Shown in pieces: positions 30,167 to 53,411 of a DNA stretch of 64,000 nucleotides. The translations under genes and the position numbers were made by a program. The stretch lies in NCBI GenBank assembly GCA_963723515.1, contig CAVRQT010000003.1, forward strand, positions 352,001 through 416,000. The letters are read 5' to 3'. This stretch comes from Vulcanimicrobiota bacterium. Its GTDB lineage: Bacteria; Vulcanimicrobiota; Vulcanimicrobiia; Vulcanimicrobiales; Vulcanimicrobiaceae. The notes beneath the pieces were generated by a model. The model saw nothing but the letters and a program-made list of their open reading frames with translations, was not told the DNA's origin and ran no database searches. Numbering within the stretch: position 1 is the stretch's first letter; each line of letters begins with the position of its first letter.

Positions 30167-30491
30167 TTCCTCCGGCGGGATGCTTCAGAGGCGCGTGAAG
30201 CGGCCCATTTGGGAACGCATTCGCGGCATATGCGGACGGTTGTGTAGCGCCCATGAATGCAACGGCTACCGCCGAGAATAGCAAAAAGGCTAGTGGTCTA
30301 ACCAATGAGTAATTTGCCTCGCGGATAACACATCGGAGTGCGTGGGGCTCCCTTCACATTGGACTTGAATGGTCCTGCAATTGTCCTGCAGAGGGCATCC
30401 ATTCACGCCGTCCGCGTGGCGTCAGGCTCCGCAGTCGCCAAAGTCAGCAGCGGAGCACTTTCAAGGACGGCTAAACGCGAGCAGTCATCCT

Positions 30492-31307
30492 TTACATTAA
30501 CGGCGTTGCGTGGCTTATATCGTCGTGGTAGAGACCAAATGTCTTCCGATGCCATGCGAAGTGCCGTTCGAGCGCCTTTATGCGCGCAACGTATGTCGGG
30601 TGGTCCGAGAGCCACCGAGATTCAGCGGCTGTGCGTGCGTTCGCGTTGAATTTTCTGAAAAGCCAGACGAAGCCCCAAGGGTTGAATCCCGCTGCTGCAC
30701 AGATGTCTGAGCCTCGTAGATCCGCGCGCTCCTCGTCACCCCGCGTGTAATGCGAGAGAATAAGTGCGTCACCCGTCGCGGTCGCGTTATCGATCGCAGC
30801 GTCGAGACGTCCTCGAAACGCACGCTTCAGCCGTGTCCCGGACCAGTCTTCAAAGGAACCCAAGCGGTTAACCCGCGCAACGGCTGCGATCCCGTCATGA
30901 TGGATCGCGTGCGACATTTCATGGCAGAGTACGGCCGCGAACTCGTCGGCGTTATTGGCAACGAATTTGAGCAGCCCTCGATCAACATAGACTCGTGATG
31001 CAAAAGCCACGAAGGCGTTTGGCACGTCGGAATCCACGACATAAAACGTAAACGGAGCATGGTAGATCGACGATGCCACGAGGGAGATCCGCGCGCCGAT
31101 ACGATTTACAACGCGCTGCTCGGTCGCGTTGTGAACGATCTTGTGCTGGCGCTCCATATTCGCGTAGTAATGATCGTCGAGCGCAATCTCATCGGGCGTG
31201 GGAGCAGCAAAGGCGACACGTGTCAGAAAGAGCGTGTAAAACGTAAGGCCGATCAGGGAACGAACGATCATTCTACATTGTCGTGCTGATTCCAAGAATG
31301 GATTCAA
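30492..31307 (-). CDS. M48 family Zn metalloprotease
   Basis: PNAF, HEMSH, EERAD, SDHP. Confidence 0.9.
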   Translation of the reverse strand: MNPFLESARQCRMIVRSLIGLTFYTLFLTRVAFAAPTPDEIALDDHYYANMERQHKIVHNATEQRVVNRIGARISLVASSIYHAPFTFYVVDSDVPNAFVAFASRVYVDRGLLKFVANNADEFAAVLCHEMSHAIHHDGIAAVARVNRLGSFEDWSGTRLKRAFRGRLDAAIDNATATGDALILSHYTRGDEERADLRGSDICAAAGFNPWGFVWLFRKFNANARTAAESRWLSDHPTYVARIKALERHFAWHRKTFGLYHDDISHATPLM

Positions 31308-31352
31308 AGGGGGAGCCCGGTTTCAGCCGCCCTGTCTCGATGTCGTAGCCTC

Positions 31353-31691
31353 TTAGCAATCGTAATAGATGCAGATGGTTTCACCAGTGTCATCATCCAC
31401 ATAGCACTCTGCGCAGACGTCACCATTCTTTATCGGTGCACTGAGAGCAAGTGAGCCGCTCGCCGTGAGATGGTGCACGCCGCTTCGCGGTCTAACCGCG
31501 ACGATTTTGCCGTGTCTAACTATGACTGTGTAGCTGGCGTTGGCGGCCTTCACGATGTTCGCGCCTTCATGTAGCTTCGCGTGAATTTTGACGGCGTTCT
31601 TCGATGACGTAGCGGGGACTGCCGAAAACGCTGCCGGGCTCAACGAAGCAACGAATGCGAGCCCAATAAGGACTGAAGAAATTCGTTTCAA
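31353..31691 (-). CDS. Secreted protein with a C-terminal Cys motif
   Basis: GGAGG RBS + TTG start, signal peptide, CAECYVDDDTGETICIYYDC tail. Confidence 0.6.
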   Translation of the reverse strand: MKRISSVLIGLAFVASLSPAAFSAVPATSSKNAVKIHAKLHEGANIVKAANASYTVIVRHGKIVAVRPRSGVHHLTASGSLALSAPIKNGDVCAECYVDDDTGETICIYYDC

Positions 31692-31771
31692 GAACGACCT
31701 CCAATACGGAGAGATGTGTGCTGCTGCCGTCACACTCCCTTTTCGGCCCCGGATTTCCTGCGCTGTGTTGC

Positions 31772-32404
31772 TCAAGCGCACAGCTCGAGGTGAGAAAATA
31801 ACTCGGGACGCTTTATGTACAGCTCGGCGGCAGAGCGCAGTGTCTTGACGCGGTCGGTGTGCCATTCGCGCTCCAGTTTTGGCATCGCATCTCGGTAAGG
31901 GAAGTCGCGCAGGAACTCGGGTCTAACAAGCAATGCGCGGACTTTTCGTTGCCGTACCTCGCCGACGGGCTCACAGGTCAGGAAGATCGCATAGAGAGTG
32001 GCATCATTTGGTCGGCCGACGTCTTCCCGAAAAAAACCACTGCAAAAATGCTCTGCTGTGACGTTGACGACGCAATTTAGCACAAACGTTGCATCGTTTT
32101 GTGATAGCTCAAGTAACGGCTTTTCCGGTGTCGCGCTGCGCGCTGCAGCAAGGACCTTGGTCTTGACATGGTCATTCAGCATGACTTCCCCCAACGGTCG
32201 CTCAAGTATCGTACGAATTTTGAGCTGCCCATCCGCCAGCATGTTGAGGCTTACATGAAGCCGGTCAAGGAAGTCTTTTCGATCGTACTGTCTCTTTGCC
32301 CGATATCGCACTACGAGCGCTCCGGCAGCGGCGCCTACGAAGGCTCCTAGAAAACTCAGATTCTTGAAAATATCAATTGCATGTTGCAGCAAATTCTGAT
32401 TCAT
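31772..32404 (-). CDS. Hypothetical protein with an N-terminal TM
   Basis: 210-aa ORF, hydrophobic N-terminal segment. Confidence 0.65.
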   Translation of the reverse strand: MNQNLLQHAIDIFKNLSFLGAFVGAAAGALVVRYRAKRQYDRKDFLDRLHVSLNMLADGQLKIRTILERPLGEVMLNDHVKTKVLAAARSATPEKPLLELSQNDATFVLNCVVNVTAEHFCSGFFREDVGRPNDATLYAIFLTCEPVGEVRQRKVRALLVRPEFLRDFPYRDAMPKLEREWHTDRVKTLRSAAELYIKRPELFSHLELCA

Positions 32405-32495
32405 GGAACCCGCCGTTCATCTGCCGGTAGGATTGTCCTAGGCCACTAATCGTTGAAAGGGGACGCGCCGGTCTGGCGGGGCACGTAGAGCGTTC

Positions 32496-33195
32496 GTGGA
32501 AGTCGATAGATGCACCGTGGAAGATAAATCGCTAGGCGATAGCACGGTTACATTTCTCTTTACCGACATCGAGCATTCGACGCAACGATGGGAGCGTGAT
32601 CGAAGTGCGATGATGTATGCGGTGCAACGACACGATGAGCTGATGCGGGGCGCGATCAATGCCAGCGACGGTCACGTTTTTAAGACCGTCGGTGACGCGT
32701 TCTGCGCCGTATTCAAGCGCCCTACAAACGCCGTCGTCGCCGCCATCGAGGCTCAGCGGCGAATTTTCAACGAGGACTTTTCAGCCGTTGGGGGCCTGCG
32801 CGTGCGGATGGCGCTGCACAGCGGGACGGCCGATGAGCGCGATGGCGACTACTTCGGCCCGGCCCTCAACCGAGTCGCGCGGATCGTTTCGATCATCTAT
32901 GGCGGCCAAGTCGTGCTCTCAGAGGTAACCTGCCTTCAGGTGCGCGATGAATTGCCGGGCGATACGACGCTCGTCAACCTGGGTGCGCACCGGCTCAAAG
33001 ATTTGGCTGAGCCCGAGCGTCTGCATCAACTTGTTGACTCCCGATCTGCCGCACGACTTTCCGACACTACGCTCCCTTGAAAAGCTGCCGAACAATCTTC
33101 CGCTGCAACTCACGCACTTCATCGGCCGCGATGCTGAACTAGCCGCGTTAGAAGCACTTTTAGAAGAATCGCGACTTGTGACACTCGCCGGCACC
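32496..33195 (+). pseudogene. Truncated class III adenylate/guanylate cyclase-STAND gene
   Basis: TFLFTDIEHST, FKTVGDAF, DYFGPALNR; frameshift near 33040; homology to 50078-52888 stops at LVTLAG inside the P-loop. Confidence 0.8.
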
Positions 33196-33497
33196 GCTCC
33201 GAAGCGAGCTGCGAAAGGAGCCTTTGGTTTCCGAGGTCCGGTGGGCCGTCCATGTCCTGCCATGGGCACTCACTTCTAACGGCGCAACTCGTTTATCTCT
33301 GCATGTCTCAAATCGTCACCGCATCGCTTCCAGCTGGGCGGCCTTCCGTCGCTTCTCGCACTTCCATGAGGCCAAGATGCGATGGCGACTGCGCGGATGA
33401 ATTGCACCGGTGCGGCAAAACGCTGATGAAGCGATGAACAGCATCGTGAGCAGTGCGCGACGGCGCTAAGCGCTTCGAAAAGCTCACCTCGCGCTAT

Positions 33498-36379
33498 CTA
33501 GGGCCAGCCATTTCTGAAGCAAATTCGGCGCAAGCATCCCGATAGTGCAATGATTGCCCCAAAGAGACCAGCTGGTGTACTTGCTAATCGCCTCCCCACC
33601 ATTAAGCAAAGCGATCGCTCCCAGTCGTGCGGATCAACCGAATAGATTGCTAGCGTTCCGTACTGATGCTGTTCCAGGTATCCCGCTACGAGGTACCGGC
33701 CGTCCGCGCTAAAGCTTAAGCTTCGGAAGTGGTGATAGTTGCCGTTGAAGTGGGGTGGTTGTGGCAGCGGCGGCCCTACTCGATGTGCCCGTTTGAAAAT
33801 CGGCAAGCTGAATACCACCGTTTTCCAAACTCTGGAACGCATAGAGTCGAGAATTTGGCGATAAAGCGATTGGACCGCTCGCGGAAATTTCCAACCCAGG
33901 AACGGGATTCAAAGATGGCAAGGAGTATACGCGGAGTCCGGTTCTTGTGCTCTCAGGTTGTACAAAAAGCGTAACCCTCGTCTTTAGAGAACCCGGTTCC
34001 GTCGAAAAACCTACCGAATGCGCGTACCATCTCGGAACAATGTAAATAAGTAACCGGGCCCAACGGGCGCAGTGTCTTCTGTAGGCAGCCAAAAGCAATC
34101 GCCCACGCGAGCTCAGATAATCGGCTGTATCACAATACGCTGAAAAGCTACGGACCCTTCCGCCGCCTTCTTTAAGCGATTCTATATCGTCTGGCGCGAA
34201 AAGACGGTGCCGCACGATCGTGACCCATGCGTCGATGGGTCCCCATGCCGCCTGACAGATCCTCTACGTAATTGCCATCCTTGTCTAGCGAAACCGGCGG
34301 TAGCTGGAAAGAGTGCACTACCCTGGGGCCTGCGCCGATATCCATTAGTTCGACTCTACCGCTCGTGAAATAGATCCTCACCGCATGCACGCCGTCCCCG
34401 ACGTCCTTCAGTCTTACCGAACCGTTCGCGTACGTATCTCCTTCGAGTTGTGTGCGAAAGCGATTCAGTTGATACGCGCGCAGTCGGTTCCGTCCTTGCT
34501 GGATAAGTGTATCTCCACTGAACGCGTAGCTGTCGCCCCACGGCCCACCGTCAAGCACACCAATCATGGGCGAATGAATCTCCGAAAGAGATCGAAGAGC
34601 TGAGCCCCGTGAATGGCTCGACCGTGGCCGATGGTGACTCATTAGTGACGAATTCTTTTACATGATCATCGTAGACTCGGGCGCAAAGAAAACCCGGACC
34701 TGGTAAGAGTACTCCGGTCCCACAAGGCGTCGCTTTCGTTCATCGAAGAGGCTGGGTTAACCGCCCAGCATCAATCGTTCCTCGCGGCCACGAGTAGTTT
34801 AACAAAGTCACGGCGTGCCCGCAGGAAGCGCCCGGGACAGTCTGGACGATCTTGGTTTCCCAAGCAGCAGTTCGTATTAAACCGTCGTCACACCACGAAA
34901 TTTCATTCTTGGTCGAGTTAAATGCTATTCCCTGAGAACAATCCTTGATACAGTCCGCCTTCTTTATCGGAATATCCCGAAGCTGGCGCAACGAGGGCGT
35001 CGCAAAGATGGTCAGCTCAGCAGCGCCGGTGACCTCGTCCTGTTCAAAGCCCCGAGCAACGGTTAAAATACTGAGGACAGCAACGAATCTTCCGTCTGGA
35101 GAAACCGCTAGTCCGCAGGAAGCCCCCGCACCTGTGCTGCAGCAAGTGCCTTAGCGGAGCCAACGCGATATAACGCTGTAAGTCGCCGACTACTTGATGC
35201 GACAGCAAGTAGAGACGCGCTACTGCACGCTAGAGCCCTTACGTGCGCGCCGCGAAGACTCGACATGACGACAAACCGCGATCGGTGCACGATGCTGTAG
35301 ATTGTAACGCCCGACGAATCCGAGGCTGCGAATAGAGGGTTGCGCGGAAAACCACACAGGTGCGTCGCCAGCCGATGTACGGGCGTCCGCGACATGACAC
35401 TGAGATCGTTGGAGTCCAAAGACAATGAAATCTTTCGGCTGCTTACCGTCGGGCGTGACTGTTTCTATAGCGAGCAGCCGCCCATAATCCGAAAAAGCCG
35501 CCAATTCCCAATCCGGCACGGCGACACTGCGCAGAGCGTCAAGAGTGCTCAATTGCGCAAGCATGGCGCCTTCAGTTTCTGGCGTTTCCGCCGTTTTGTA
35601 TGCCTCTGTAGCGAGGATCGCGCCGACGACGCTTCCTTTCCGCTGCATACTCATTGACGCGGTTGCATTTGCCCGTTGGACAACGAGTCAACGATAGGCC
35701 ACCGTCGTCGGCCACACAACCAACCCAATGAAGACGATAGCGAGGACTGCCCGCAATATGAGGACACGGCGACGGCGAATCCGATCTCGCACCTTGAGCT
35801 CATCGAACCGGATGCCCGCGATCGCTGCGACGATTCGTAATCGTACGTCTCTTGCAGGCTCACCATGCGGTCGCGCATCGATGACGAGTGGTTCAGGAAG
35901 CCTTGATCCAGCGTCGTCGATCAGCAACGCGGCTGGAAGCGAGTCGCCCAGTTCACCGGCGACGAGCACGGCGAAAATGCGATCGCTGCCGTTCTTGTTA
36001 CGGAATTGGCGGATCTCCTGATTGACCCAATTCGAAGCAGCTGCGTCCGGCGAACACAGAACGACGAGTGTGCGCGAATCTTCAAGAGCAGCGCGTAGAG
36101 AAGCGCCAAGGTCGGCGGAACCTGAGAGCTCATCGCGGTCGCGAAAGATCGGAATAGGCGCTTGGGGAGCGGCTCTGCTGGTTCGCCACCCAATTTTGCT
36201 GGCAGTCGAAACGTCTCGATGGCACGAGCGAGTCGTTCCGCGGTTCGTTGCTCGTGGTGACTATAACTGAGGAAAGCCCAGTAGCGGGGAGCGCGTCCTA
36301 CAGAGGTTTGCAAAAAGACACCTGACCGATGTTCCTTGGGCGCGTCGCGGCTGTTAGGCGCTTCCCCGTCCTCTATCAC
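33498..36379 (-). CDS. TIR domain + TM + WD40 beta-propeller protein (multiple frameshifts)
   Basis: AFLSYSH, (P)IFRDRDEL, VLCSPDAAASNWVNQEI, RRRR-TM, LATEAY linker, SLSFSADGRYL-type repeats, DWERSLCLMVGRRL tail. Confidence 0.75.
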
Positions 36380-36851
36380 AGCTATAAAAATCTTCGGAGC
36401 AATTAAAAGAAAATCTTGCCTAGTCTACTGACGCGCACTCCACGTCGCTCGGAAAAGTCGGTTGCGCTGTACCGCGCCGGCTCGGAAACGCCCGATATCG
36501 TGCTGAAAATGCAGACGCAGCGGCGCGGATCCGTTACTCTATGTCACGGCATGTCACGGCTTCTGTTGCACTTCAAAACCGCCGACCCAGGCTCAGTACA
36601 GGGACACACTGACCTTCACCAGCAGGTGGCGCACTACATGTCGTCACGCCCTTTTGCGAACCTGGCGAGCCAAATCGCTCCCCGTCTGAACACGTTCACA
36701 AGATTTACGTCTTAAACGGAATTTCTCTCAAACAAGTTGGCCACAATTCATCAACTAAGGCCCCACCGCCCAGCGCCGGCCTCGCAATAGCATCCACCGT
36801 AATGCCGAGGAAGCCGCCGCGCACGAGACAGTTCACCCTTTTTCGATACCA

Positions 36852-38260
36852 TTAACTCACCGCAACCGGCTGTGTTGCGGTTTTGAAGTCCTCAATGAAG
36901 CGATCCAGTTCTTGCATGTCGATATCAGCCGGTGTGGCATCCTTTATCTCCATTAAGTTGCTTAGCGTCGTTGCGCTTTCGAACGGCTCAATCTTTAACG
37001 ATTAGCTTTAGCAGGCCAGCCCCCGCGCGTTGCCAGTCGTTCGCGAGTACTGCAAGTTCAATACCTGTTGCGAGTAGCCAGTAATCGGGCGTGTCGCCGA
37101 GGCGAGCAACGGCGAAGGTAACCGCTGGCACGATCTTTTTCTTCATCGCGATGGATTCTGGAGAATTTCGAATCGCGAGTAGCGTGGCGAAATTTACGCC
37201 GGGATAGTAGTCGCGCGGATCCGCCATGAAACCGCGCTGGTACGAAGCGATGGCTTCATCGAGAAACGCCATAGCTTGAAACGGGTTCTTGCCTTTTGTT
37301 TCCTTATAACGGTCTTTCCAAATGCGTCCTAAAAGTCCGCAGGTCTCGGGGTCATCCCCGTGATCTTTTACTATCGCTTCTAGCAGTCGTTGCGCTTTGT
37401 CGCGATCACCGGGTTGATTGCGTCGGTTGAGGACAAGCGCATATTGTTGGCGCAATGTGACCGAGGTGTCCATGAGCCACTGCGGCAGGCGTTCGGCTAA
37501 CAACACAGCCGCGTCCCAAGCTTGCAGATCTCGGTAGCTGAGCAACACATCGACAAATAGTTCGGCGTTGTTTTGCTGCGGAGCCCCCAGTTCAGTTTCA
37601 ATTGCCTTGATGAGCTCGAGGGCATGGTCGCTGTCTTTGCGAGCCGCTTGCAGGCGTATGCGCACACCGTCGACGTAACGGCTTCGGTCACGAAAGTTTT
37701 CCGTAACTTCGTGCGGCAAGTGGATTCCCGGAAACTCTGGAAGAAGCTGGAACAGCGGGCTGTCGCTCGATTCGGGATTCGCCAACGCGTATTCAACTCT
37801 GTCTTGAAGTGTTTGCTGCAATTGTGCAGCGCTCTCGGCGCTTAATTTTCCGTTGTCTAATTGATAGGGGATCGAGCTGATCATGGATATGTCGAAGGGG
37901 AGTATTCCTTGATTCCCCCAGATGATGATCGTGGACCGCGGCCGCGCGGCGTGCCGAATTCCCAGCTCGTAGAAGACGTTCGGGTTTGGGACCGTGACAT
38001 CGACGATCGTAACATCAGCTAGCAGCAAGCGCTCGAACATCGGCACATGAATAATCCCGCCACCGCGCTCCTCGTCCGCGCGGATGCATTCCAGCTTAAG
38101 GCCATCGACAGCCGGCTTAATTCCACGCGTGTAAATATCGTCGAAATCGATTTCCAACGTGCGCGTTGCATCTGGCTTCTTGCCGAAGGGCATCGCCACG
38201 AAGACCAAAGGCGCGCACGGGTTCGGCGCTTGCGGCGAAATGCGTTGCTTATGGGTAGTC
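36852..38260 (-). CDS. NDT/DRHyd-like nucleotide hydrolase + TPR-S (DUF4071/MAP3K TRAF-binding-like) protein (frameshift near 36995)
   Basis: FVAMPFG, RADEE, NPNVFYELGIRHA, LSYRDLQAWD, QQYALVLNRR, LLGRIWKD, YYPGVN, DYW; C-terminus continues EPFESATTLSNL in another frame; start approximate. Confidence 0.82.
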
Positions 38261-38366
38261 ACGGGATCGACTCCGTTCAGTTGTACCGCAATGCGGTACG
38301 GTCTTAGTAGCGCTTTATCGGAAGCGGGGGATGTCCTCGTCGTTGGGCTACTAAATATACTTTCGT

Positions 38367-40024
38367 ATGGCCGCACGTGCACCGGTGATGGAAACGGGGC
38401 CGTTCCCGCTTGTGGTCGGCGTGACCGGACACCGCGACCTGCGAGAAGCGGATCTCCCTCCGCTGCGTGAGGCGGTGTGCGCGGTGCTCAATACGTACCG
38501 GACAAATCTACCGCGCACGGCAATTACGATTCTATCGTCGCTCGCTGACGGGGCGGATCGTTTGGTCGCGCGCGTAGCGCTTGAGCGGGGATGCAGCCTT
38601 GCGGCTGCGCTGCCGATGCCGCGCGAGGAATTTAAAACGACGCTTAAAGACGACGCTGCCCGCGCCGAGTTTGATTGGTTGCTCGCCCAATGTACGGCGC
38701 AGTTTGTAGCACCACCGCTGAACCGCGATATTGATTGGCGGCAGCGTCGGTCGATCTTCGCTACGCGAATTGCGCCGCGTACATAGTCATGCGATCCGCC
38801 GAACAAATCGCACTGTGGGACGGAAGGCGCACCGATGGAATCGCCGGCACAGCTGCCAGCGTGCGGTTCATGCTCGAAGGAGTTCCCGAGCCGATTGTCT
38901 CTCGGCGCAGCGACTTAGATCCCGAACCGATTGGCCCAATTATTCAAATCGTTACACCGCGAGAGGCTAATCCTTCGCCCGACGGTGTGCCTTACAGCAT
39001 CAAGCGCCTGTATCCGCCGTTCCTCATTTCGCAAGTTGATAACGAGGATGTCTTTGCGGATCTACTTCACCACCTTGATAACTATAATAACGACGCGATC
39101 GAATGCGCGCACGTGCGCAAGATGCGCCACTTTTCTCTTGAAGAGCTGCAAAACATCACCGAGGTGCTCTCGGGCTACTACCAGGGCTGGACGCAACGCG
39201 TACTGCTCTCGGCGTTGGCATTTTGTCTTGGCAACCGTCTTTTTCGACCTATATGTTACGGGGTTGCTTCAATCGGCATTGGTGTTACTGAGCTATTTCG
39301 GCTTAACGCTTGGCGCCGTTATCGTTTATGCGATTTCTCAACGGCGCGGCTATCAAGATCGCTATCAAGATTATCGTTCACTCGGAGAGGCCTTGCGCGT
39401 GGCCGCTTTTTGGCATCGAGCTGGCGTCGCCGCATCGCCCGCTGACGTGGTTGCGCACCTTCAGCGGGGAGAAGTGAGTTGGCTGCCGACTGCGATTCGG
39501 GCGCTCGTTGAACCATGGCTCCCAAATATTCCGAGGCCTTCAGTGAACGCGGCCGGGTTGCGAGATGTCTACGAGCAATCGGTCGTTGACCAAGCGGCTT
39601 GGTATGCTCGGCGAATCAAGGAAAAGCGACAGTTTAGCGCGCACGCCGCCGTTATAGCCTTCTAGCAGTCGCCGCGGCCGAAGCGATCATTCCGCTGCAG
39701 CTGCTGCCGGGGATGCATGGATGGCGCGAGGGGATATTTCTGGTAAGCGGCGTTTGCGCGATACTCGCCGCACTCATTAGCTACTATGCCGAAAAGCGGG
39801 GGTGGCTCGAGGAAATGAAGGAGTACATGCGGGTCGGCGCGCTGTTCGGTCGTGCACGCGAGCAACTGTCAACGCTCTTGTCTGAGCCTTCCTTAAGCGA
39901 AGCGACACTACTACGGATCCGCCGCATGCTCGAAGAACTCGGCCGCGAAGCTCTGCGCGAAAATATAGCGTGGCGCAATTTGCATCGCCAGCGTCCGATT
40001 AAGTTACCGCATATGCACGTATAA
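38367..40024 (+). CDS. SLOG domain + tandem SLATT-like 2TM modules (frameshifted)
   Basis: VGVTGHRD, SSLADGAD, ALWDG..GGTA-like; YQDYRSLGEALR, DQAAWY, LGREALRENIAW. Confidence 0.75.
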
Positions 40025-40774
40025 TTTGCGGTGGAATGCAGGTGATCGAGTATCTATACTCACGGAATAAAGCATGAATAAGAGAGGGGCTGGGATCGTA
40101 ATGGCGGATAAATCGGACCGCGCGATCGTAAATTCTCGGAACGTAATTCTATTCTCTTTGGCTTGGTTAATCGCTCTGCTCGCGTTCGGCGCGCAAACAT
40201 CGCTTCCGGCGACCGCTAGCGCCATACGCCTCGATGACGTGGTCGATATGACGCTCGCAGGTGGCTTGCGGCTTTCGCGCTGGGGTCTTTGCGCTCGAGG
40301 ACTTTTCGTTGGCGTCGTAGCAGCGAGCGACGAAAATTCATTCCTGGGCGTCATCTATATTAAGCGAAGCGCTGTAAGAATCATAACGGTGCGCGGGCGC
40401 GAACGGAGCAGCGATCGCTCTGATTGCGCGGCGTACCAATCCGTGTCCGACCTCGTCAGGGGCGAAACCTACCGTTGCCGTTGGAAATAGCCGACCGGAA
40501 AGGTAACGTGTATGTGGGCGCGACTCCTTTGCGCCTTAACTCCGGAACTTTTGATGTCGCCGGCGCGTGCCAATACCGCCGCGAACTTGGTGGACCAACG
40601 TGTCGGGAGAAGATTAGCGCTCATCGTCCCGTCATTTTGCGGTCCGAGGACATCATTCTCATTACGGGCTACAGGAGTAAATGAAATCCGTTATTGATAT
40701 GTGGCTTTGTATTTATGCCGAGGCACTGTTAAAGCAGCGCAAGGCTTGTGCAGCGTAGGCGGAACGCATCGCAT

Positions 40775-41331
40775 CTATTGGTTTCGTTTTAGGCTGGCTC
40801 TTTTCAACCAAAGGTAAAGCGACGACGCGATCATCACGAGTCCCGTGAGGAGCCCGTACCCGGTCAGGCCGAGCAATAGCGTCGCAGGCATCGGTAGATC
40901 GCCAGTCCAGAGGCGTACGAGTAACGTCACCATGCCCGCAAGTACGGAAACGCTGCCAACCGTCGTGATTGCCGCGGAGCCGTCAGTGTTCGCACACCGT
41001 CCAGCGATCATTTCAAGCAGCCCTTTGCATATGAACCACCACATTAATGCAACTAAGTAACTGCCTGGCAGCCAGCATCAGCGCGGCAGACGTCAGGGTG
41101 GACAAAACCGAGTAGCAGCAACACATTTCTCGCGCGACCTCGTGACACGTACGCGGTCCAAGCTGAAAAGGCAAATTCCGTAAGTGCATACGCACAGCAC
41201 AGCAGCGGAAGAACAAAAATGAGGCCAACGAGCGCTGGCAAGATTGCGGCCGAAAACGCCAGCGCGAAGATGCTGCGAGGTAGAAGGAATGCCTGCCAAG
41301 TGCTGAACCATTTAGGCTGCAGAAGGCCCAA
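40775..41331 (-). CDS. Probable multi-TM membrane protein (frameshifted)
   Basis: Three overlapping hydrophobic ORF pieces co-oriented after the TIR-MCE gene. Confidence 0.4.
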
Positions 41332-41360
41332 GAGGCTAACTGGCCTGTTGCTTTATTTGC

Positions 41361-42194
41361 TTACAGTCCCGTGCGGCTCTGCGCAAAGTACGGCAATGTG
41401 ATGTGGCAGCTGGCGGCTGATGAACTTCCGTAGAGAGGTTGTCCGATGTGAACTATCGGGGAGTTAAGCACACCATCGTGTGCAATTGTAAATCGTGCGT
41501 CTTCGGGAATGTCGATGTCAGGCTTAAGCTGCATGATCACCTCCACTCATCGTTTAACTTGTCTCGGCATGACGTATGCCGGCTCTGTGGGAGCAGAATA
41601 ACGTTACCAACTTGGCCCACCTCTACGCCATTGTATTGAACTGGCGTATCTGCGCTGACGCTTCCCGCATCTGGAAACGAGACGCCGATCGCGTACATGC
41701 CTACTCTTGCGTTGAAATCAATGAGCGAGCGAAACGCAAAGAACAAAGCGACGAGAACCAGCGGCGTGGCCCACAATGCAATGCGCCGCGTCATCCTGCG
41801 TCGCCGCGCCAGACGTTGGACGGTATCGCGAACCTCGGCGGCCACGTTCCCCTGCGGCATAAGCACTGAAAAAGGGCGTAACGAGCTAGGAAGCTCGTCA
41901 AACGGCACAGGTTGTAACATCACCGGAATAATGCGCCCTTGAGGCTTGCGCCATCGCTCTTCGGCAAAACGGAGTTCGGTTCGGGAAGCTCCCTCGTTGC
42001 ACTGACTCGGGGGTGACTAAGAAGATCATCATGTCGCTCTTATAGAGCGATTCTCTGATCCACTTGTTGAAATCGTCGCCCGCTATAATGTTGTCTTTGG
42101 CGAAGAGCACGTCATTCCCGGCGGACTTGAGCGTTGCTGCAATCGTTTCGGCATCTCGCTGATGTGCGTTCGGATAGGACAGGAAGATTCGCAT
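41361..42194 (-). CDS. TIR domain + TM + MCE/MlaD domain fusion (frameshifts near 41984 and 41548)
   Basis: IFLSY..IFLVTPESV..(P)RTELRFA..RIIPV; RRRR-TM; SFPDAGSVSADTPVQYNGVEVGQVGNV..VEVIMQL..IPEDARFTI..GVL. Confidence 0.75.
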
Positions 42195-42315
42195 CGTACC
42201 TCAATCCGCAGATTCTGGCCGCAAGGGTTTTGGAGGACTTACATGAGCAATCGCCGCGTCGCTTTCGTCGCGGTCGTCATCGGCTTCCTTGCTCTTTCAA
42301 TGTTCAATTTGCTGG

Positions 42316-44245
42316 TCACGCGCGCGGTCGTTTCGGCCCGACAACCCTTATGCAAACTCTCCTGGTTCTATCTTGGGTGCTAGTTTCCGCGACGAACCTC
42401 GAGCAGGTTAAAGCTAACGTTTTGGCGCGTGGGATACTCGCGGAAGCGGTGCTGGTTATTGTCGCACTGCTATATTGCTGCTGCTGGCCCTTCGAAGAAA
42501 TGTAAGGGACAGAAGTGAGATGGTGTGCCAGTTCAGCGTCGCTTTGCGTGTCAGCAGGCAAATTTCTGCAGACGGCGTCGCCAAAAAATGTCGCCTTTCT
42601 TAGTGCGGAACACTCAGGGGAGAATTCTCGTTGGCCGAGGAGCCAGTCCGCATGTTCGACTAACGCTTCACGGGCAAGGTTCCGAATGATGTCCGTCTCC
42701 GCTTGGCTGCGCGCCGTTACGCCATCGAGCAGGCGCGCGTATTGTGCGAACAGCAGGTACATGCGCTCGTAACGTTTGGCGTTTTTCGCAAATCCTCTCT
42801 TGGCGGCGTAGTTGGAAAGGAAGAGCGCAATTAGGCCGCCGATGGCGAGCGGTGCGGTGGCGTTGGGATCTTGCAACGAAGTCCCCGCGTGCGCCAAATG
42901 CCAACGCTGCATGTCAGCTGAAATCACGGTTGGCCATAGCCAGCCGGTCCGGGCTTCCACGTCGTGCGCATGCTGCGGCAAGATGGTGCCCAGCGTCCCC
43001 GCTAAAGCAACCAGCGCACCGACAGCGGCGCCCGCGACGTTGAGAAAACGGGCGTGCCCTGCTTGCGTTTTTGTTGCATTTTGGTAGTAGTCTCGTTGGC
43101 CAGTCACCCACTCTCGGGCTTCTCTGGAACAATCCGCTGTAGACTGAGGAGTACTTTGAGGTGCGGTTACCTCGATGCTTCGCAATGCCCTCCGGATCCA
43201 TTGCAGTTCGCTTTTCTGCATCGAGAGATAAGCTGTCTGAGCGAAATCAGACGGCAGCCCGGCGCACGCTGTTGCATACGTTGTGCGTAAGGCTTCGCTT
43301 AACGCGCGGTAATCTTGATAGCGGTTCTCGTAGTCGAACCGCCGTGCGAACGCAAATGCACCGTAGGCGAGGACGAGCGTCGCGATTTTCACGTCGTTGA
43401 CAAATGGAATATTGCTTAAGAATTGTGCCGCCGCGGCAAAGAATGCGCAAATATATACCAGCAAGACCAAAGCCAACGTGCGAGACTGGAGTTGTCCAGC
43501 GGCACGGCCCAACCGCTCTTGCATCGATCCGCTTTGCCGGGCGATGTCGAGATTGCATTTTCGCAAGTGGCGTAGCGCGCTGTTAAAGTCTCGCGCGGCG
43601 GTTTTGTCGCCTTCGAATCGCGGCGGGAATAGGCGCCTGATCGTAAAAGCGTCAGGCAGCGATTGCCCCGTTTCGGATGGCGTAAGGATTTCAAACGTCG
43701 GCGCGATATCGGGCTGTGACGGGCGGCGAGGTCGGCATCAACGCCGGTGGCCTCGCCCGTTTTTCGCATCGTAACGACGTCTCGCCGGCGCCGCCGTCCA
43801 ACGTGGCGCCGTCCCAAAAGATTGCGGCGATATGGCTAAAAGTAGCTAAGCACAGTGCGACCGCGTTGTCGCTCTGCGAAGGGTTTTCGGAGGTTCCGAC
43901 CACGATTGTTGTGCTACTTTGCTGCAACGCGGCACGAAAACGTGCCAGATGATCGGGCGAGAAGCGTTGTTCGTAGTCTGCTTGGGGCGCGGGCAAGAGT
44001 GCGATGACAGGAACGCGGGCCGCAAAGGCGCGCTCCGCGGCAATGATTTCCGCGCCCGGGCAAAGTGCACTCATGACGGCAAGCGGCAGACCTTTGTGCG
44101 CGAAAACGAGCTGATCTAAAAGAACGCCGAACGCGCTTGAAAGCTTCGGTTCGTCGGAGGGCGCGATCTGGGTGTATCCGGTTAGCCCGATGAGCAGTGG
44201 TATGCCCGGCGCGCTCCGCGCTTCGCTTGTTTCAAGCTGACCCAT
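42316..44245 (-). CDS. Second SLOG + SLATT-like protein (frameshifted; true 3' end probably near 42600)
   Basis: IGLTGYT, SALCPGAE, FWDG; YQDYRALSEALR, WVTGQRDYY, REALVEHADW. Confidence 0.72.
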
Positions 44246-44629
44246 ATGGGCCCGTTCTAGCGGGTCGCCGCAACGCCTCGACAAATGACGTTTCTGCCCA
44301 GGCCCCGCCAGCGGTCTGACCTAATGTGTCGCAGCTCTGCGGCATTGAATATAGGTATTGTTTCGCCTTTGCGAACCAGACGACGACGTCTCAAATTCAA
44401 GCGGTGCACGACCTCTTCTCGCGCTGGCATTATGTCCACAATGCGCGCGACGGTGGCGGACGGTCACAAGCGGGAACAATTCTCGCTAACACGCCATCGA
44501 CTGTTTTCGTTGTACTGCATCGTTTCGTACCGCGCAATGATCGGGTGCACGCAGAGGGTTGAGCCCTGTGGAATCCGAACAACCTAGGATGAAACTCGCA
44601 GTGCGTTCGCACCGCGGGCCATTTGGCTT

Positions 44630-46141
44630 ATGGAGCCGGTAAGAGTGCCACGGTTATTCCTTTCGTATGCCCGAAAAGATGATGCACCCTTTGAAGAGCG
44701 GCGCGGCAGTGGGTTCGTTACTGTGTTGCTTAAGCATCTCGAAGAGGCACTTGACGATCTTGGGCCGCCGATTCCGGAAATCTTCCGCGATATGCGCGAG
44801 ATCGATGAGCCAGCCAGTTTGACCCGGTGCTACGTGAGGAATTAGCCCGAGCCGACTATTTGCTGGTTGTGCTCTCAAACAACTGGTTGCATCGACCATG
44901 GTGCCGGGACGAGTTAGAGTTGTTTGCATCCAGATGGCATCAGGGCGACCGTGCGCTCAAGGAACGCATCATCGTGATCGGCCGGCGCTTCATCGATCCT
45001 GAAAAGCGACCCGCGCTTCTCCAGGGACAAAGCGGATATCTTTTTTGCGCCTTCGACCGCACGACGAACGACTATGTGGAGTTCTACAAGCGCGGAGAGG
45101 TTTGTGATAAGCGATATCACGACGAAATAGAAGCTTGCCAAAAAACTTCAAAAGCTCGCGCAGACTGAGGCGCCGCTAGAGAGCGGCGCTCGCACCAAAC
45201 CAACGCGCAAAGTTTTCGTTTCAAAGCCAGCGGGCGATATGGAAGCTGCCTATGCCCGCGTTGTAAACGAGCTCGAAGCGCAGGTTTGTCTCGGAGGTGA
45301 TTCCGCCGCGTGATGCCGAGATTCCAAAGCAGCGAGCGGAAGCGTGGATTGACAGCGCGTTGGCCAAAGCGGAAATTGCAATTCATTTAATCGGAGAGAA
45401 ACCGGGATGGACGCCGGAGAGCGGGACCCCCATTGTCTGCACTTCTTCAACTTGCCCGCTCAGCGACACATGCGCAAAAATCCGATCTCCGCCGCATCAT
45501 ATGGGCGCCGAAGAAAGTCACCGCGGACGGCAACGCAGACACGCATGGTGATTTGCGCGAGCCGGTCTCGGTGGTGTCGCGCTTTTGTGAGAAATTGGAC
45601 ACTGACACCATCGATGGCAGCGAGCTTGCCAAGTTTCTTGAGTTCGTTACGCTGTATCTTCGGGAGCACCGCCCCGCCCCGGAATCCGGTACCGATGTGG
45701 CGCTCGCTGCGAACTCACGAGTGTACCTGCGTTACTGGGATGAAGACACCGATTATGCGCTGGAACTCAAACGAGCGCTCGAGCAGCGTCAAATTGCTAC
45801 CGAGATGTCGGTACTCGACGGCAACCAACCGGCTTGAGCTTGAAGAGTTTAACCGCCGTTTGCTCGATCAATCGGATGCGGCGCTTGTTTGTTGGGCGAA
45901 TGTCGACGAGCTGCGCGTACGCAGCCAAATGATGCAATGGCGCGACACCCGCAAGGTACGTGCCTTGGTTGCCGGTCCGCCCGACCGTAACCCAAAGAAA
46001 GTGCTCGTCGCGAGCCCTCCAAAGAACGACGTCGACGTTGTGCTCGATTTGCGCAATAGCGCTAAGGTCACGCCGGACGCACTTGACCCGCTGATCAAGA
46101 AAACGCGAACGCCGCACAACGCCTCCGCAACCAAACCATGA
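44630..46141 (+). CDS. TIR-domain protein with further Rossmann-like segments (multiple frameshifts)
   Basis: LFLSYARKD, IFRD, LVVLSNNWLHRPWCRDEL, IAIHLIGE; overlaps the nSTAND1 start (ATGA). Confidence 0.7.
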
Positions 46142-48413
46142 CCGTGGCGTTCAGCCCGCAGCTTTCAGCGGAGCGTCCGTTTCCGGGGCTGCGCGCCTTC
46201 ACATTTGAGGACCGCGAATTCTTTTTCGGACGGGAACAACAGATCTTCGCGCTTTATCGGTTATTAGACTTAAGCCGTTTTATCGCTGTCGTCGGCGGGT
46301 CTGGCAGCGGCAAATCATCACTGGTGCGCGCGGGCCTTGAGCCATTAGTGGAACAAGAGAGTGAGGCCGATGGCGGAAGGCCATGGATGCTTGCGACCAT
46401 GCATCCGGGAGAAGCGCCCATTTCGTCGTTGAGTGATGCCTTGGCATCACTACATGGAAAAATAGCAGGCGCTGCCGACACGGCGGACCACGCGATCCGT
46501 CGCAGTCGGATCGAGCATGCGCTTCGGCGCTCCAGCAGGGGCTTATTGCAACTGATTCGCGATACCGCTGCTTTCGAGAAAAGCGCTTACTGCTCGTGGT
46601 CGATCAGTTTGAGGAGCTCTTCCGCTATGCGTCACCTGGATTGAGAGCCAAGAATTCGATTTCTGAGTTCTCATGGCGCGACGAAGCGACCCAGTTCGTG
46701 CATCTCTTGCTCGAGGCGTCCGCGGACCGGGAGACATGGGGCTACCGTGCTCATCACCATGCGTTCCGATTTTATTGGAGACTGCGCACTCTATTATCGG
46801 CTCCCTGAAGCCGTCAGCGAAGCTCAGTTCCTCGTCCCATCGTTGACCCGCGGCCAGCGCGAAGACGTCATTCGCCAACCCATTGCCAAGGCCGGCGCTG
46901 AGATTGAACCAAGTTTAGTCCAAACATTGCTAAACGAGGCAGGTACCGAGATCGATCAGCTTCCCGTTCTGCAGCATTGCCTTGCGCGTCTGTGGGATCG
47001 AGCGAAATCTCGTGCCACCGAGCAGCGTCCGGCGCTGAACATTTCCGATTATGAAACCGTGGGACGCCTCCAAGACGCCCTTTCGCAACATGCAAACGAG
47101 ATTATGGCGTCACTGCCGGGCCTCGAGCAGGTCGTCGAGTCAGTGTTCCGCGCGCTGAGTGAGGTCGACAAAGAGGGGCGCGCCACGCGTAGAGCCATCC
47201 CGTTTGAGCAGTTGCTCGCGGAAACAGGCGCGTCTCGCGCGGATTTGATTCGAGTGCTCGATCGCTTTCGTGCTGACGATTGTTCATTTATCGTCCCGTC
47301 AACCTCAGCCGTACCCGTGCTGCATGATGCGACGCAAATCGATGTGGGACACGAAGCATTGCTACGCCGGTGGGACCGCATGACCGGTGATGACACGGCA
47401 AGGGGATGGCTTTCGGCCGAAGATGATGATGCCGGCTGGTACCGCATGTTGCTGCGATTTGCTAAAGGCGCTTAATGGGCGAGCCGAATCGTGTAACGTT
47501 GCCCGCTCAGCAAGTAGAAGCATGGTGGGCGCGTTGGAATGCACGCCCGCGTACCAGCGCTTGGGCGGATCGCTATGGCGGCGGTTTCGAGCGCGTCCAA
47601 GAACTGTTGAAAAACAGCCGGCAAGCGGTCGAAGAGCAACGCAGACGCGCACGTACCGCTCGAGCGCGGCGTATGCTAGTTGTCGTAGCAGCGATGTTCG
47701 TCGTGATTGTGCTTGCGCTCGGCTCCTGGCGTGTTCTTTACGTAGCGGACCAGACGCACAAGGAAGCAGTCGACGTGGCGGACACTGAGAATAACGCTCA
47801 GGTTTCCATGCAGTTCAGCGGGGTTCTGCGCTCGGTCGTACGCATTCGTGCAGGTTCCCAAGTTGGGACGGGAGTCGTGGTCGGACAACGAGCTTCCTCG
47901 TCATACATTTTAACCGCCGCTCACGTGATTGGTGCTGAGAGAAGTGTGCGAGTGTTTTTGCACGCTTTGTATGGTCAGGGCGACGGGATTGCAGCGCGCG
48001 TTATAAAGGCGAGCCCCCAAACCGATTTGGCCGTGCTTTCCATCCGGCGGACGAACGTGCCGGCGATTGCGCTTGGCCGGGTGAGCGAAGGGCTGCTGGT
48101 CTACGTGGTAGGTTTTCCGCAGTCTGAACGCGCCTTTGAGATGACAGGTATGCACCGTTCAACGACTACAACGCTTGGTGTGGTTGAGATCAATCACACC
48201 ACGGGGCGACTTAACGTTGAGGAGGCCTACAGCGGGCAGGCGCCGTTTCTGTACGGGGGCAATAGCGAAGGCCTCATCCTGGACCGTTATACATTGGGCC
48301 TTGTTGGAATCATCCATCGCGCGGTCAGTCGCGCGGGTAACGGCTACTCCTTTGCTCCCGTACCCATCAACACCATAACGCAATTCTTGCTACCGATTTT
48401 ACGCTCGTCTTAG
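46138..48413 (+). CDS. nSTAND1 NTPase + TM + trypsin-like domain (breaks near 46580, 46740 and 47472)
   Basis: PFPGLRAF..FFGRE, GGSGSGKSSLVRAG, VDQFEELF, TMRSDF, QLPVLQH, HEALLRRW, WADRY; TM; GTG..LTAAHV..DLAVL..GNSEG. Confidence 0.78.
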
Positions 48414-48510
48414 TGAGGCGTATGTGGCGCATCCGTTATCTGCTCATTCCAAAAATGACACGCTGCCACCGCGGCACCGCCGGGCAATCTGCCAACGAGA
48501 GGCGATATTA

Positions 48511-49563
48511 ATGCGGCTCTGGCTTTTTGTTATAGCAGCATTCGCATGTTTATGTTGTCTGACGGTCCTGTCTGCACGAACGTCAAGCGAATCGCCGCTA
48601 CTGCGACTCACCGATGCTAACGTTGTTGCATCCGGAGATGGCACGACGTGGTTCTCGGCGGTAATCGGGAACAATCCGGGCGCCGTAGTCGTCGGTGAAC
48701 TCGGACCGGCGGGGCCCGTGAACGTATTCGCGTTGTCTTCCGCTGATCAAGGAGTGCCAACAGCCGGGAACGTCGACGCGCACGGCGTTTTCTGGTTTCA
48801 GGGCAACGGAGGCAGATACATAGGCGAAATTTCTTCAGCGGGCATTCTCAAAAAGTATGTGCTGTCGCAGGTTAGCGTTGGCGACGTTAACGCAGCGCCA
48901 AACGGGAGCGTCTGGTTCACGGATCAACAAGCCGGTGGGGTTGGACTCTTGGACGCACGTGGTGCGTCATTTCGATGGATCCTCAAGGGCACTCGGGTCC
49001 ACAAAACTGCGGTCGCAGCCGATAGTTCGTTGTGGTTCACCGGGGTTGACACGGATACGGTTAACCATCTGCTGTCCAGTGGAAACAATACGCAATACAA
49101 GGTGAGAGCTGAAGGCGATCGGCCCTTTGAACCATCGGAAATAGCAGTTGCAAAAGATGGTGCGGTATGGTTTAGCGCACAAGAATTCTTGAATAAAGTT
49201 GGGACGATCACACCTTCCGGGTCGCTGCGAACTTTCTGGATACGGCCCTCTGACTTTGGAGCGTTCGCGCTTGCGCCGTACGACGGCTCGGGAGTGTGGT
49301 TTGCACAGAGCCGTCCTAGCCGCGTCGGGACAATTGACGCCGCAGGGCACGCTCAGGCACTGGATGTACCGATCAAAGGCCGTGAGGTAGAACCCACGAG
49401 CATCGCGACTGACCGCCTCGGCGACGTGTGGTTGTGCGACTCGAGTTCGAAGGGCGTCGGCTTTTGGCGACTGGACACTCGGCGACACTTCACGGAATTC
49501 ACCAGCGTGCCGTCGGCCAAGCAACCGCAGATCATCACCATAGTGGTAAGGGAAGTGCGTTGA
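48511..49563 (+). CDS. Secreted Vgb-lyase-like beta-propeller protein
   Basis: Signal peptide; repeated DGxVWF units. Confidence 0.8.
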   Translation: MRLWLFVIAAFACLCCLTVLSARTSSESPLLRLTDANVVASGDGTTWFSAVIGNNPGAVVVGELGPAGPVNVFALSSADQGVPTAGNVDAHGVFWFQGNGGRYIGEISSAGILKKYVLSQVSVGDVNAAPNGSVWFTDQQAGGVGLLDARGASFRWILKGTRVHKTAVAADSSLWFTGVDTDTVNHLLSSGNNTQYKVRAEGDRPFEPSEIAVAKDGAVWFSAQEFLNKVGTITPSGSLRTFWIRPSDFGAFALAPYDGSGVWFAQSRPSRVGTIDAAGHAQALDVPIKGREVEPTSIATDRLGDVWLCDSSSKGVGFWRLDTRRHFTEFTSVPSAKQPQIITIVVREVR

Positions 49564-49915
49564 GGATACCATTCAACTGCCTAATCGGGATTCGCAGGCA
49601 GCGACTCAATTGCGAACCACATCACGCTCTCAGTAAGAACTAGCGCGTCGAAGGCGACCCGCGTCCGTTGAAGCTGGGCTGCCATCCAGCGAGTTCTCGC
49701 AGAAATCGCAGCGCTCTCTATACGTTGCTTGTAATGCCCGTGCTGTTCGAAAGGCTGCACGGCGCAGCTTACCAGGTGCCAACAGTTTCGAGCGCGTTTG
49801 GCCGCCAATTTGACACATCCAAGGAGACGCGTGGATTCCACGAACCCCCTCGTACTGCGGCCCCTGGACGCGACAAAACGGGGCAAGGCCGCTATACGTT
49901 TAAGTTTGCTCCTAT

Positions 49916-49991
49916 TCCGGATTAGCTCAGTTGGTAGAGCAGCTGACTGTTAATCAGCGGGTCGTTGGTTCGAGTCCAACATCCGGAGCCA
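49916..49991 (+). tRNA. tRNA-Asn(GTT)
   Basis: TCCGGAT/ATCCGGA acceptor stem, GCTGA-CTGTTAA-TCAGC anticodon arm, GTTCGA T-loop, encoded CCA. Confidence 0.97.
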
Positions 49992-49995
49992 ATGT

Positions 49996-50025
49996 AACGC
50001 CCGCCAACGTCAGTTGGCGGGCGTT
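49996..50025 (+). terminator. Hairpin downstream of the tRNA
   Basis: AACGCCCGCCAAC-GTCA-GTTGGCGGGCGTT. Confidence 0.7.
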
Positions 50026-50077
50026 GTCATTGCGCGCGCAAACCGGCGATTCAGGAGCGAGGGTATAGCTGGCTGCG

Positions 50078-53103: not shown

Positions 53104-53411
53104 CTGACTGTTAATCAGCGGGTCGTTGAACCGTCATCCTGAGCGGAGCGGCGAAGCCGCGATGTCGAAGGGCGAGTCCAACATCCGCAGCCAAATTAAT
53201 AGAAGAGCCACCAAAACGGTGGCTCTTTTGCGTCTGTCACCCTGAGCTTGTCGAAGGGCGTCATCCTGAGCGGAGGGGCGAAGCCGCGATGTCGAAGGGC
53301 GAGTCCAACATCCGGAGCCAAATTAATAGAAGAGCCACCAAAACGGTGGCTCTTTTTCGTTGTCACCCTGAGCTTGTCGAAGGGCGAAGGGCGAGTCGAA
53401 CATGCGGAGCC
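53104..53411 (+). repeat. Three tRNA-Asn 3' fragments interleaved with REPs and GAGCCACC-AAAAC-GGTGGCTC hairpins
   Basis: 53104-53128 = tRNA 49943-49967; 53173-53193, 53300-53320 and 53392-53411 match the tRNA 3' end. Confidence 0.9.

Follow-up and report, generated by a model that had tools for sequence, protein, structure and literature searches.

The question raised by this locus is whether a block of broken, immune-type genes encodes one signalling system, several separate pieces or the remains of a decaying island. The block occupies 33.5-48.4 kb of a 64,000-nt stretch (hereafter the window; G000:C3:352001-416000) from the genome of an uncultivated soil bacterium of the Eremiobacterota/Vulcanimicrobiota, family Vulcanimicrobiaceae; the genome comprises 2.11 Mb in four contigs and is rated 88% complete. 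The open reading frames (ORFs) of the block are short and overlap one another, and its GC content of 0.55-0.58 equals that of the flanks. From translations and start codons, seven genes (A to G, Table 1) were delimited, of which only B is intact; in the other six, about 20 frameshifts and a single TGA stop were counted in total. A Pfam scan of the 143 stop-to-stop ORFs of at least 60 amino acids (aa) in 33300-48500 revealed seven genes of immune type within 15 kb and no unrelated family between them. Two pairs are divergent, namely B/C (158 bp apart) and E/F (382 bp apart).

The best explanation, to which we give about even chances, is that the region is a conflict or defence island of known TIR/NAD-signalling parts, made up of three pieces, and not one new integrated system. 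The first piece would be E, F and G, the local version of a cassette that recurs in the phylum, in which G would be a membrane-spanning STAND protein with a variable outer domain (an HtrA-like protease here), F a dedicated TIR protein and E a SLOG-SLATT protein. The second would be B, divergent from the second SLOG-SLATT gene, C, and upstream of the TIR gene A, and the third would consist of A and D, each a solitary gene for a TIR domain, a transmembrane (TM) helix and an outer domain.

With regard to gene content, the initial annotation of this DNA, made from the letters alone, had described three TIR genes that keep the putative catalytic Glu, one DRHyd-TPR-S gene, two SLOG plus SLATT-like genes and one nSTAND1 gene, all legible only after frame repair. 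This inventory stands. The motifs WVNQE, RTE and WCRDE are found in the translations and the TIR pieces are confirmed by Pfam, as are the TPR-S part of B and, far above the cut-off, the nSTAND1 part of G, while a profile of 27 homologues recovers C and E. Frameshift-aware alignment shows the breaks in A, C, E, F and G, and the ORF layout those in D. A hydropathy scan also found a single helix after an Arg-rich patch in each of A, D and G, so that the predicted N-in/C-out topology stands as well; of the outside domains that had been proposed to follow it, MlaD in D and trypsin in G were recovered, and the WD40 label of A was not, since it has no Pfam match.

Table 1. Genes of the locus. Frameshift counts come from frameshift-aware alignment to intact homologues, except for D, and positions are accurate to within a few tens of bases.
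Gene	Position	Strand	Content	Interruptions	Basis
A	33498..36313	-	TIR, RRRR patch, one TM helix, ~700-aa outer domain	6 frameshifts, near 36153, 35462, 35124, 34766, 34252 and 33789 (G256 reference); in-frame TGA at 35688-35690	Pfam, hydropathy, alignment to G256 homologue
B	36988..38208	-	N-terminal Rossmann-like (DRHyd/NDT-like) head and TPR-S; candidate Thoeris type VIII (ThsI)-like effector	Intact; 0 frameshifts against L006 homologue	
C	38367..40024	+	SLOG-SLATT copy 1, divergent from B	3 frameshifts, near 38779, 39200 and 39664	Profile, frameshift-aware alignment
D	41364..42196 (3' end uncertain)	-	TIR, RRRR patch, one TM helix, MlaD/MCE domain	At least 2 frameshifts, from ORF layout alone	Pfam, hydropathy
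E	42319..44247	-	SLOG-SLATT copy 2	1-3 frameshifts, near 43714-43782 and possibly 42624	Profile, frameshift-aware alignment
F	44630..46141	+	TIR and two further Rossmann-like (alpha/beta) domains	5 frameshifts, near 44808, 45133-45166, 45275, 45438 and 45835 (two different references)	Pfam, profile of 9 orthologues
G	46138..48413	+	nSTAND1 NTPase, Arg-rich patch, one TM helix, outside HtrA/DegS-like trypsin domain	3 frameshifts, near 46575, 46725 and 47470	

Genes E, F and G and a cassette recurrent in Eremiobacterota

Judged by sequence comparison, E, F and G appear to be the local, patatin-less version of a cassette that recurs in Eremiobacterota, here with a protease as the outer domain. 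The cassette was surveyed, with one genome per species, in 48 loci that hold a SLOG-SLATT relative, nearly all of them from Eremiobacterota, using profiles built from those loci. An F-type TIR gene is present in 14 of these loci, an nSTAND1 gene in 15 and a B-type TPR-S gene in 6, and a patatin gene in 31, in 27 of which it is directly adjacent according to a reading of the coordinates. Pfam confirms the parts of the cassette on 23 proteins from seven loci. The orthologues of F and G lie next to each other and encode about 507 and about 1450 aa, respectively, and the TIR is encoded by a gene separate from nSTAND1 both in the window and in 14 loci. The conservation of the neighbourhood, which the initial annotation had set out as a check, is found for the E-F-G linkage and not for A or D. 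RHS/DUF6531 genes were also seen in 8 of the 48 loci, where an RHS-repeat/DUF6531 gene lies directly 3' of the gene for an nSTAND1-TM-WD40 protein (among them L036:17569-19314, L040:13897-15882, L007:12789-14465 and L019:893-3253).

The nSTAND1 family (PF20703) is matched by gene G in three pieces (46087-46641, 2.7e-27; 46437-46805, 8.9e-5; 46645-47472, 9.3e-45), with 96.8 and 154.3 bits against a curated cut-off of 27.1, and the translation shows Walker A as GGSGSGKS and a Walker B region with DQFEE. A TM helix at ORF residues 64-95 and a Trypsin_2 domain (47466-48410, plus strand, 1.5e-15) are also present, and NCBIfam gives weak HtrA/DegS matches, all below their cut-offs. G is 58-62% identical to its orthologues, and in 10 of 10 nSTAND1 orthologues one TM helix at about 540-670 follows Arg-rich residues and precedes WD40 repeats, TPR repeats or an unassigned domain. 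In the literature searched, no STAND NTPase of the nSTAND1 clade with a C-terminal domain beyond a TM helix was found.

Upstream, the stop codon of F overlaps the start codon of G (ATGA), and the F gene is translationally coupled to G. The TIR domain of F (TIR_2, 2.8e-6 at 44809-45165, plus strand) is followed across the frames by a profile of 9 orthologues, which matches six frame segments, and the alignment column that holds the Glu of WCRDE is invariant across the F family. The model of the orthologue from locus L036 contains three alpha/beta domains, with a predicted local distance difference test (pLDDT) score of 79; a fold search with it returned generic Rossmann folds and TIR folds among the matches and left the two C-terminal domains without assignment. 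A complex prediction for the N-terminal 470 aa of nSTAND1 and the TIR protein, both as L036 orthologues, scored 0.26 against a mark of 0.32, which gives no verdict and is not evidence either way.

In Pfam, gene E matches DUF4231/SLATT (42319-43737, minus strand, 1.7e-3) and gene C the YAcAr SLOG family (38355-38783, plus strand, 1.8e-5), both below the curated cut-offs. The SLOG and SLATT calls are firm at the family level because a profile of 27 intact homologues matches both copies: E in two frames at 44212-43757 and 43722-42625 (310.8 and 118.0 bits) and C in four frame segments of 81, 68, 53 and 40 bits. At E<=0.01, DUF4231 is found in 21 of these 27 homologues, DprA (a SLOG family) in 21, SLATT_3 in 17 and YAcAr in 9, and a SLATT_1 match in 8. 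The family is large and uniform in length, with 384 matches of roughly 480-600 aa, and its profile found no match at E<=5 among the PDB sequences. Gene E starts with an ATG at 44245-44247, has two predicted TM helices and continues as an open frame for about 100 aa beyond the end of its homologues (about 42603). It is 43-44% identical to the protein of G011 ('Ca. Zemynaea palustris', same family), to which C, the more diverged copy, shows 35% identity. In that genome, an intact SLOG-SLATT protein of 533 aa is followed by a patatin gene, whose product resembles the lipases of the cyclic-oligonucleotide-based antiphage signalling system (CBASS; PADLOC 7.2e-44, and NCBIfam CBASS_lipase 3.6e-26, below the cut-off).

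Genes B and C and the solitary TIR genes A and D

Gene B (ORF 36991-38487, minus strand) matches MAP3K_TRAF_bd at 1.3e-38 and TPR-S at 6.7e-25, the latter above the cut-off, and starts with a TTG at 38208, its homologues beginning at about ORF residue 57. The AlphaFold2 model has a pLDDT of 92.5 and an alpha/beta head. The TPR part and ASK1 dominate its fold matches, the best of which are 8qgy and 5ulm, from the N-terminal/central regulatory region of ASK1, and a profile of 73 homologues matches the TPR/central regulatory region of ASK1 at 5e-34. With regard to the head, a weak match to DNPH1/Rcl was found (E 0.0045-0.02, profile positions 31-88). From its sequence, the architecture of B would be that reported for the Thoeris type VIII effector, a CMP hydrolase with TPR, by Yirmiya et al. 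(bioRxiv 10.64898/2025.12.03.692087).

The family of B is very large, with 12,757 representatives at E<=1e-3. Its neighbourhoods were followed in 80 metagenome loci with a relative, of which 38 had their flanks scanned by Pfam. A TIR gene lies within 2.5 kb of the B-type gene in 8 of the 38 and SLATT_2 within the same distance in 3, and a SLOG-SLATT (DUF4231) neighbour is found in 2, L075 (also by Pfam) and L076 (by the profile alone, the flank ORF having no Pfam match). In the window, gene A lies downstream of B on the same strand, after a gap of 674 bp. Other neighbours of B-type genes include TPR-S proteins with different heads (trypsin, alpha/beta hydrolase) and pairs of TIR and LSDAT_prok SLOG genes (L077:8135-9772; L110:883-2391; L112:8326-9711; L098:2778-4830; L100:2-3272), which points to a wider set of TPR-S and SLOG readers around TIRs.

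Genes A and D are solitary TIR-TM-outer-domain genes. We have seen no evidence, beyond their position, that ties them to the system of the other genes, and none of the 48 SLOG-SLATT loci gave a match to the TIR pieces of either gene. The TIR domain of A (35691-36260, minus strand) is matched by ThsB_TIR at 2.4e-8 and by TIR_2 at 2.9e-8, and the gene likely starts with a TTG at 36313. Its outer domain shows blade-like, that is propeller-like, motifs (SPDGR/SADGR) in the translation and has no Pfam match, either in its pieces or in the intact homologue of 913 aa from G256, with which A aligns over residues 22-904 at 37% identity. This intact homologue is the only one among 120 other genomes of the family. 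It is surrounded by genes for Lon, an aminotransferase and PheST, on a 12-kb contig that contains no member of the other families of the locus. The TIR-TM piece of A matched 37 longer proteins, in which the TIR is followed by WD40, TPR or unassigned regions, with one TM helix after the TIR in 8 of the 8 relatives checked. Furthermore, some nSTAND1 proteins of the surveyed loci (L033, L053, L021, L052 and L017) have a C-terminal part that is matched by pieces of A's outer domain.

Gene D starts with an ATG at 42194-42196 and matches TIR_2 (41901-42200, minus strand, 4.5e-13) and, above the cut-off, MlaD (41540-42016, minus strand, 7.5e-8). Its resemblance to MCE proteins is confined to the TM and MlaD part (41848-41582), at 31-39% identity to MCE proteins of the phylum, and this piece found ordinary MCE genes and no TIR fusion in 301 genomes of the phylum. 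The four matches that reach furthest are tandem mce genes without a TIR. A search of 5.8 billion proteins for longer proteins returned none with the TIR-TM-MlaD architecture, which is weak evidence. Between C and D lie two short frames, 40071-40694 (plus strand) and 40778-41352 (minus strand), which have predicted membrane helices and no family match and look frame-broken.

Interruptions and surroundings of the locus

The state of the genes can be read in two ways. Most interruptions are probably consensus indel errors of a long-read assembly, an origin that we consider somewhat likelier than true pseudogenisation. A search for sequencing runs with 10 kb of the locus returned none. The rival reading, which we rate below even chances and nonetheless take seriously, is that the frameshifts are real and that the island, having lost its function (for example because the patatin partner was lost or the pore was costly), is decaying, with B under selection or intact by chance.

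Several observations weigh against an intact locus and favour decay. Among the 421 bins of 5 kb in the genome, the block ranks second in fragmentation, with 0.22 covered by frames of at least 200 aa against a median of 0.88, and the damage is sharply bounded, the flanking genes (27545-31322 and 48379-52885) being whole. One break, the TGA of gene A, is of the substitution type and lies within the continuous alignment to the G256 homologue. Gene C is weakly matched and diverged, with a segment missing (profile positions 409-459), and neither a patatin of the cassette family nor a second copy of any component was found in the four contigs of this 88% complete genome. A truncated cyclase fragment adjoins the locus.

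The density of frameshifts points in the same direction. As a baseline, 20 segments of 20 kb were sampled from G005, a complete genome of the same family, with a filter on GC content at third codon positions (GC3) for coding frames. The sample yielded 177 frames of at least 300 aa, of which 72 had the coding GC3 signature; 39 of the 72 had a match in the genome of the window, where a frame covers at least 85% of the length for 28 of the 39. An unfiltered genome-wide baseline was rejected, many of its query frames being antisense shadows, which yielded 115 stops. With conserved flanks required, the filtered baseline contained 9 frameshifts and 18 stops in 63.3 kb. Fifteen of the 18 stops fell in four queries (3-5 stops each) that were taken as antisense shadow frames, and 8 frameshifts and 3 stops in about 56 kb remained after these queries had been dropped. 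Flank-supported frameshifts number 5 per 9.8 kb at the locus, compared with 8 per about 56 kb in these core genes, and counting every called event gives 18 frameshifts and one stop per 9.8 kb at the locus, compared with at most 21 events per about 56 kb. The frameshift density of the locus is 4-5 times the genome baseline.

Conversely, the spectrum and the distribution of the breaks speak for assembly error. Almost all the damage at the locus consists of indels, with about 20 frameshifts to one stop, and neutral decay deep enough for 20 indels should also leave several nonsense codons, given the mutation spectra of bacteria. The catalytic and nucleotide-binding motifs are all kept (the TIR Glu, Walker A and the His/Asp/Ser context of the protease), and B, in the middle of the block, has no break. 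Because nonsense codons are nearly absent and key motifs survive, consensus errors at a locally raised density are favoured over decay. The same indel-type breaks, supported by conserved flanks, are also seen in conserved core genes, whose loss is improbable (C2:194771 and 194826; C3:645856 and 647651 of the same genome), and one core gene, 89% identical to its G005 orthologue, carries two shifts; assembly error is thus also favoured because core genes are frameshifted as well and the damage consists almost entirely of indels. A strain-variable island at low read depth could be the source of the raised error density. A homopolymer of at least 4 is found close to only about half of the junctions, which is roughly the chance level and uninformative. 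Since core genes of this assembly are frameshifted too, a broken gene in it needs read support before it is called a pseudogene. A split FGE-sulfatase gene is also present in the window (55779-56648 / 56614-57060).

As for the surroundings, the fragment next to the locus (32457-33077) is a frame of 207 aa with a guanylate/adenylate-cyclase domain only (9.6e-10), and it looks like a truncated paralogue of the cyclase-AAA-TPR gene of 939 aa at 50069-52885. Two overlapping frames at 31356-32416 (minus strand) have no family match. Further upstream, 27545-31322 holds the genes for a protein of 880 aa with two trypsin domains and for an M48 peptidase; L019 has relatives of both, at about 35% identity, on the flanks of its SLOG-SLATT gene (L019:9113-12822), and one of each is found in L029 and L045. 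The trypsin-domain protein and the M48 peptidase may belong to the same kind of island. On the other side, a tRNA-Asn gene lies at 49916-49991, and partial direct copies of its 3' half are found at 53104-53128 (25/25 identical), 53173-53199, 53300-53326 and 53392-53418. The guanylate-cyclase/AAA/TPR gene is the only gene in the 3.2 kb between the tRNA gene and the first copy. On this sequence pattern, the arrangement looks like repeated integration at tRNA-Asn.

Proposed signalling and relation to known systems

If the region is an island of TIR/NAD-signalling parts, a cue at the outer domain of the cassette would cause the STAND modules to assemble inside the cell, and this assembly would bring the TIR protein into an active oligomer. 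The TIR would then convert NAD+ into a signal of the cyclic ADP-ribose (cADPR) type. The SLOG domain would read the signal and the SLATT pore would open, and TPR-S would read the same signal and switch on the hydrolase head. A logic that leads from TIR through a NAD-derived signal to a SLOG/SLATT or TPR-S effector, on which the initial annotation had relied, is also the published reading of these families.

The functional coupling of these parts is weakened by several points. Enzyme activity, signal and defence are predictions from sequence. The 48 SLOG-SLATT loci come from related species and their counts are not independent events, and 33 of the 48, some of them on short contigs, are without the TIR/nSTAND1 pair. 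Of the 38 B relatives, 30 have no TIR nearby and are mostly found in unrelated neighbourhoods. NCBIfam gave sub-threshold matches and none above its cut-offs for the locus, and the PADLOC check that had been proposed for it, run with 2023 models older than Thoeris V-XI, bore out the domains as weak matches and returned no named system.

A more far-reaching version, which we regard as unlikely, takes the cassette as an 'outside-in' pathway of the nucleotide-binding leucine-rich-repeat receptor (NLR) kind, in which an extra-cytoplasmic STAND sensor would perceive an extracellular or periplasmic cue and trigger TIR nucleotide signalling to pore and lipase effectors. Its parts would be the patatin, the SLOG-SLATT protein, the three-domain TIR protein and an nSTAND1-TM protein ending in WD40, TPR or a protease, often with an RHS gene alongside. 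The cue would be, for instance, an incoming toxin, envelope damage or the surface of a neighbour, and the variant in the window would have a DegS/HtrA-like protease for its outer module.

A single integrated system, with three membrane receptors of different outer domains (A, D and F/G) that would feed NAD-derived signals to shared SLOG-SLATT pores and a TPR-S effector, is quite improbable: the packing of seven genes within 15 kb, the multi-TIR Thoeris loci and the operons with SLATT and CMP-hydrolase/TPR effectors reported by Yirmiya et al., and the locus L019, which holds nSTAND1, TIR, M48, SLOG-SLATT, trypsin and TPR-S together and resembles the window, where M48 and trypsin genes lie upstream, argue for it, and against it stand the lone setting of the G256 homologue of A among housekeeping genes, the missing A-type and D-type TIR pieces in the 48 loci, the lack of any relative found with the architecture of D, and the two divergent pairs (B/C and E/F-G), both of which are also found independently of one another at other loci. 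The inference of the initial annotation that several Toll-like receptors feed shared effectors is not backed by what was found for A and D.

Among known defence systems, Avs (AVAST) models gave no match at the locus with PADLOC, and the arrangement differs from a single-chain protein in that the TIR is on a separate gene and a TM helix precedes the C-terminal domain in the 10 nSTAND1 orthologues. To our knowledge, the sensing of phage components is cytoplasmic in every Thoeris and Avs system characterised so far. SLATT effectors occur in CBASS too, and the patatin partner in the relatives of the cassette resembles the CBASS phospholipases (CapV). However, no CD-NTase/SMODS or other CBASS-type cyclase was detected in the locus by the PADLOC and Pfam scans, and the signal maker here would be the TIR. 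Thoeris type I consists of ThsB and the SIR2-SLOG protein ThsA. The locus shares with it SLOG as the presumed reader of a TIR-made nucleotide, but Pfam found no SIR2 in any frame of the locus or in the 27 members of the SLOG-SLATT family, and the output would be a two-TM SLATT pore. Several TIR genes per locus are a further likeness, to Thoeris type III, which has several TIRs and a SLOG effector (van den Berg 2024, as described in a paper that cites it).

The closest likenesses are to Thoeris types VII and VIII, which are described by Yirmiya et al. as a TIR with a SLATT effector and a TIR with a 'CMP hydrolase'-TPR effector, respectively. Canonical cADPR is the signal in both types, the two effectors occur together in rare operons, and multi-TIR loci are reported there; the prediction of the TPR sensor is credited to Burroughs and Aravind 2020 (J Bacteriol). 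With these descriptions, the initial annotation's view that the combination is not a named system no longer holds, and the window resembles a combined type VII/VIII-like locus. As in type VII, the TIR gene F is the immediate neighbour of the SLATT-domain gene E, a pairing that the survey also finds elsewhere, and by analogy TIR-made cyclic ADPR would open a membrane-breaching SLATT assembly. Unlike in type VII, the SLATT protein begins with a SLOG domain, the TIR protein continues into two extra Rossmann-like domains and is coupled to an nSTAND1 NTPase that spans the membrane, and a patatin gene usually accompanies the pair in the relatives of E-F; the likeness of E to ThsH is one of domain content. 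With regard to type VIII, B has TPR-S and a Rossmann head that may be of the nucleoside-hydrolase kind, the TIR gene A is next on the same strand and the SLATT-type gene C is a divergent neighbour, an arrangement that resembles the rare operons of Yirmiya et al. with both ThsH and ThsI. The weak DNPH1/Rcl match of the head, the gap between A and B and the many B relatives without a nearby TIR set it apart, and the likeness of B to ThsI is one of architecture.

The nSTAND1 proteins were defined with TIR, DRHyd and trypsin heads (Kaur, Iyer, Burroughs and Aravind 2021, eLife, PMC8195603), and G resembles them in its match far above the Pfam cut-off and in having TIR and trypsin among the named partner domains. 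In E-F-G, by contrast, the TIR is on a separate, coupled gene, the C-terminal domain follows a TM helix and should lie outside the cell, and in the window this domain is a protease and not a repeat sensor. Earlier computational papers also predict SLATT as a pore gated by ADP-ribose derivatives and describe TIR-SLATT neighbourhoods, and in a study of diversity-generating retroelements one NACHT protein is predicted to have a periplasmic sensor. The components and the signalling logic of the initial annotation's model are therefore already in print, and the Eremiobacterota cassette as such was not found described in a literature search.

Should these genes be whole in the living cell, the locus would extend Thoeris-like TIR signalling by an input stage that is STAND-coupled and spans the membrane, and it would join two effector types whose response to canonical cADPR has recently been demonstrated in other bacteria. 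The nSTAND1-TM-outer-domain architecture, present in all ten orthologues, is a bacterial candidate for a Toll-like arrangement with the sensor outside and the TIR inside.

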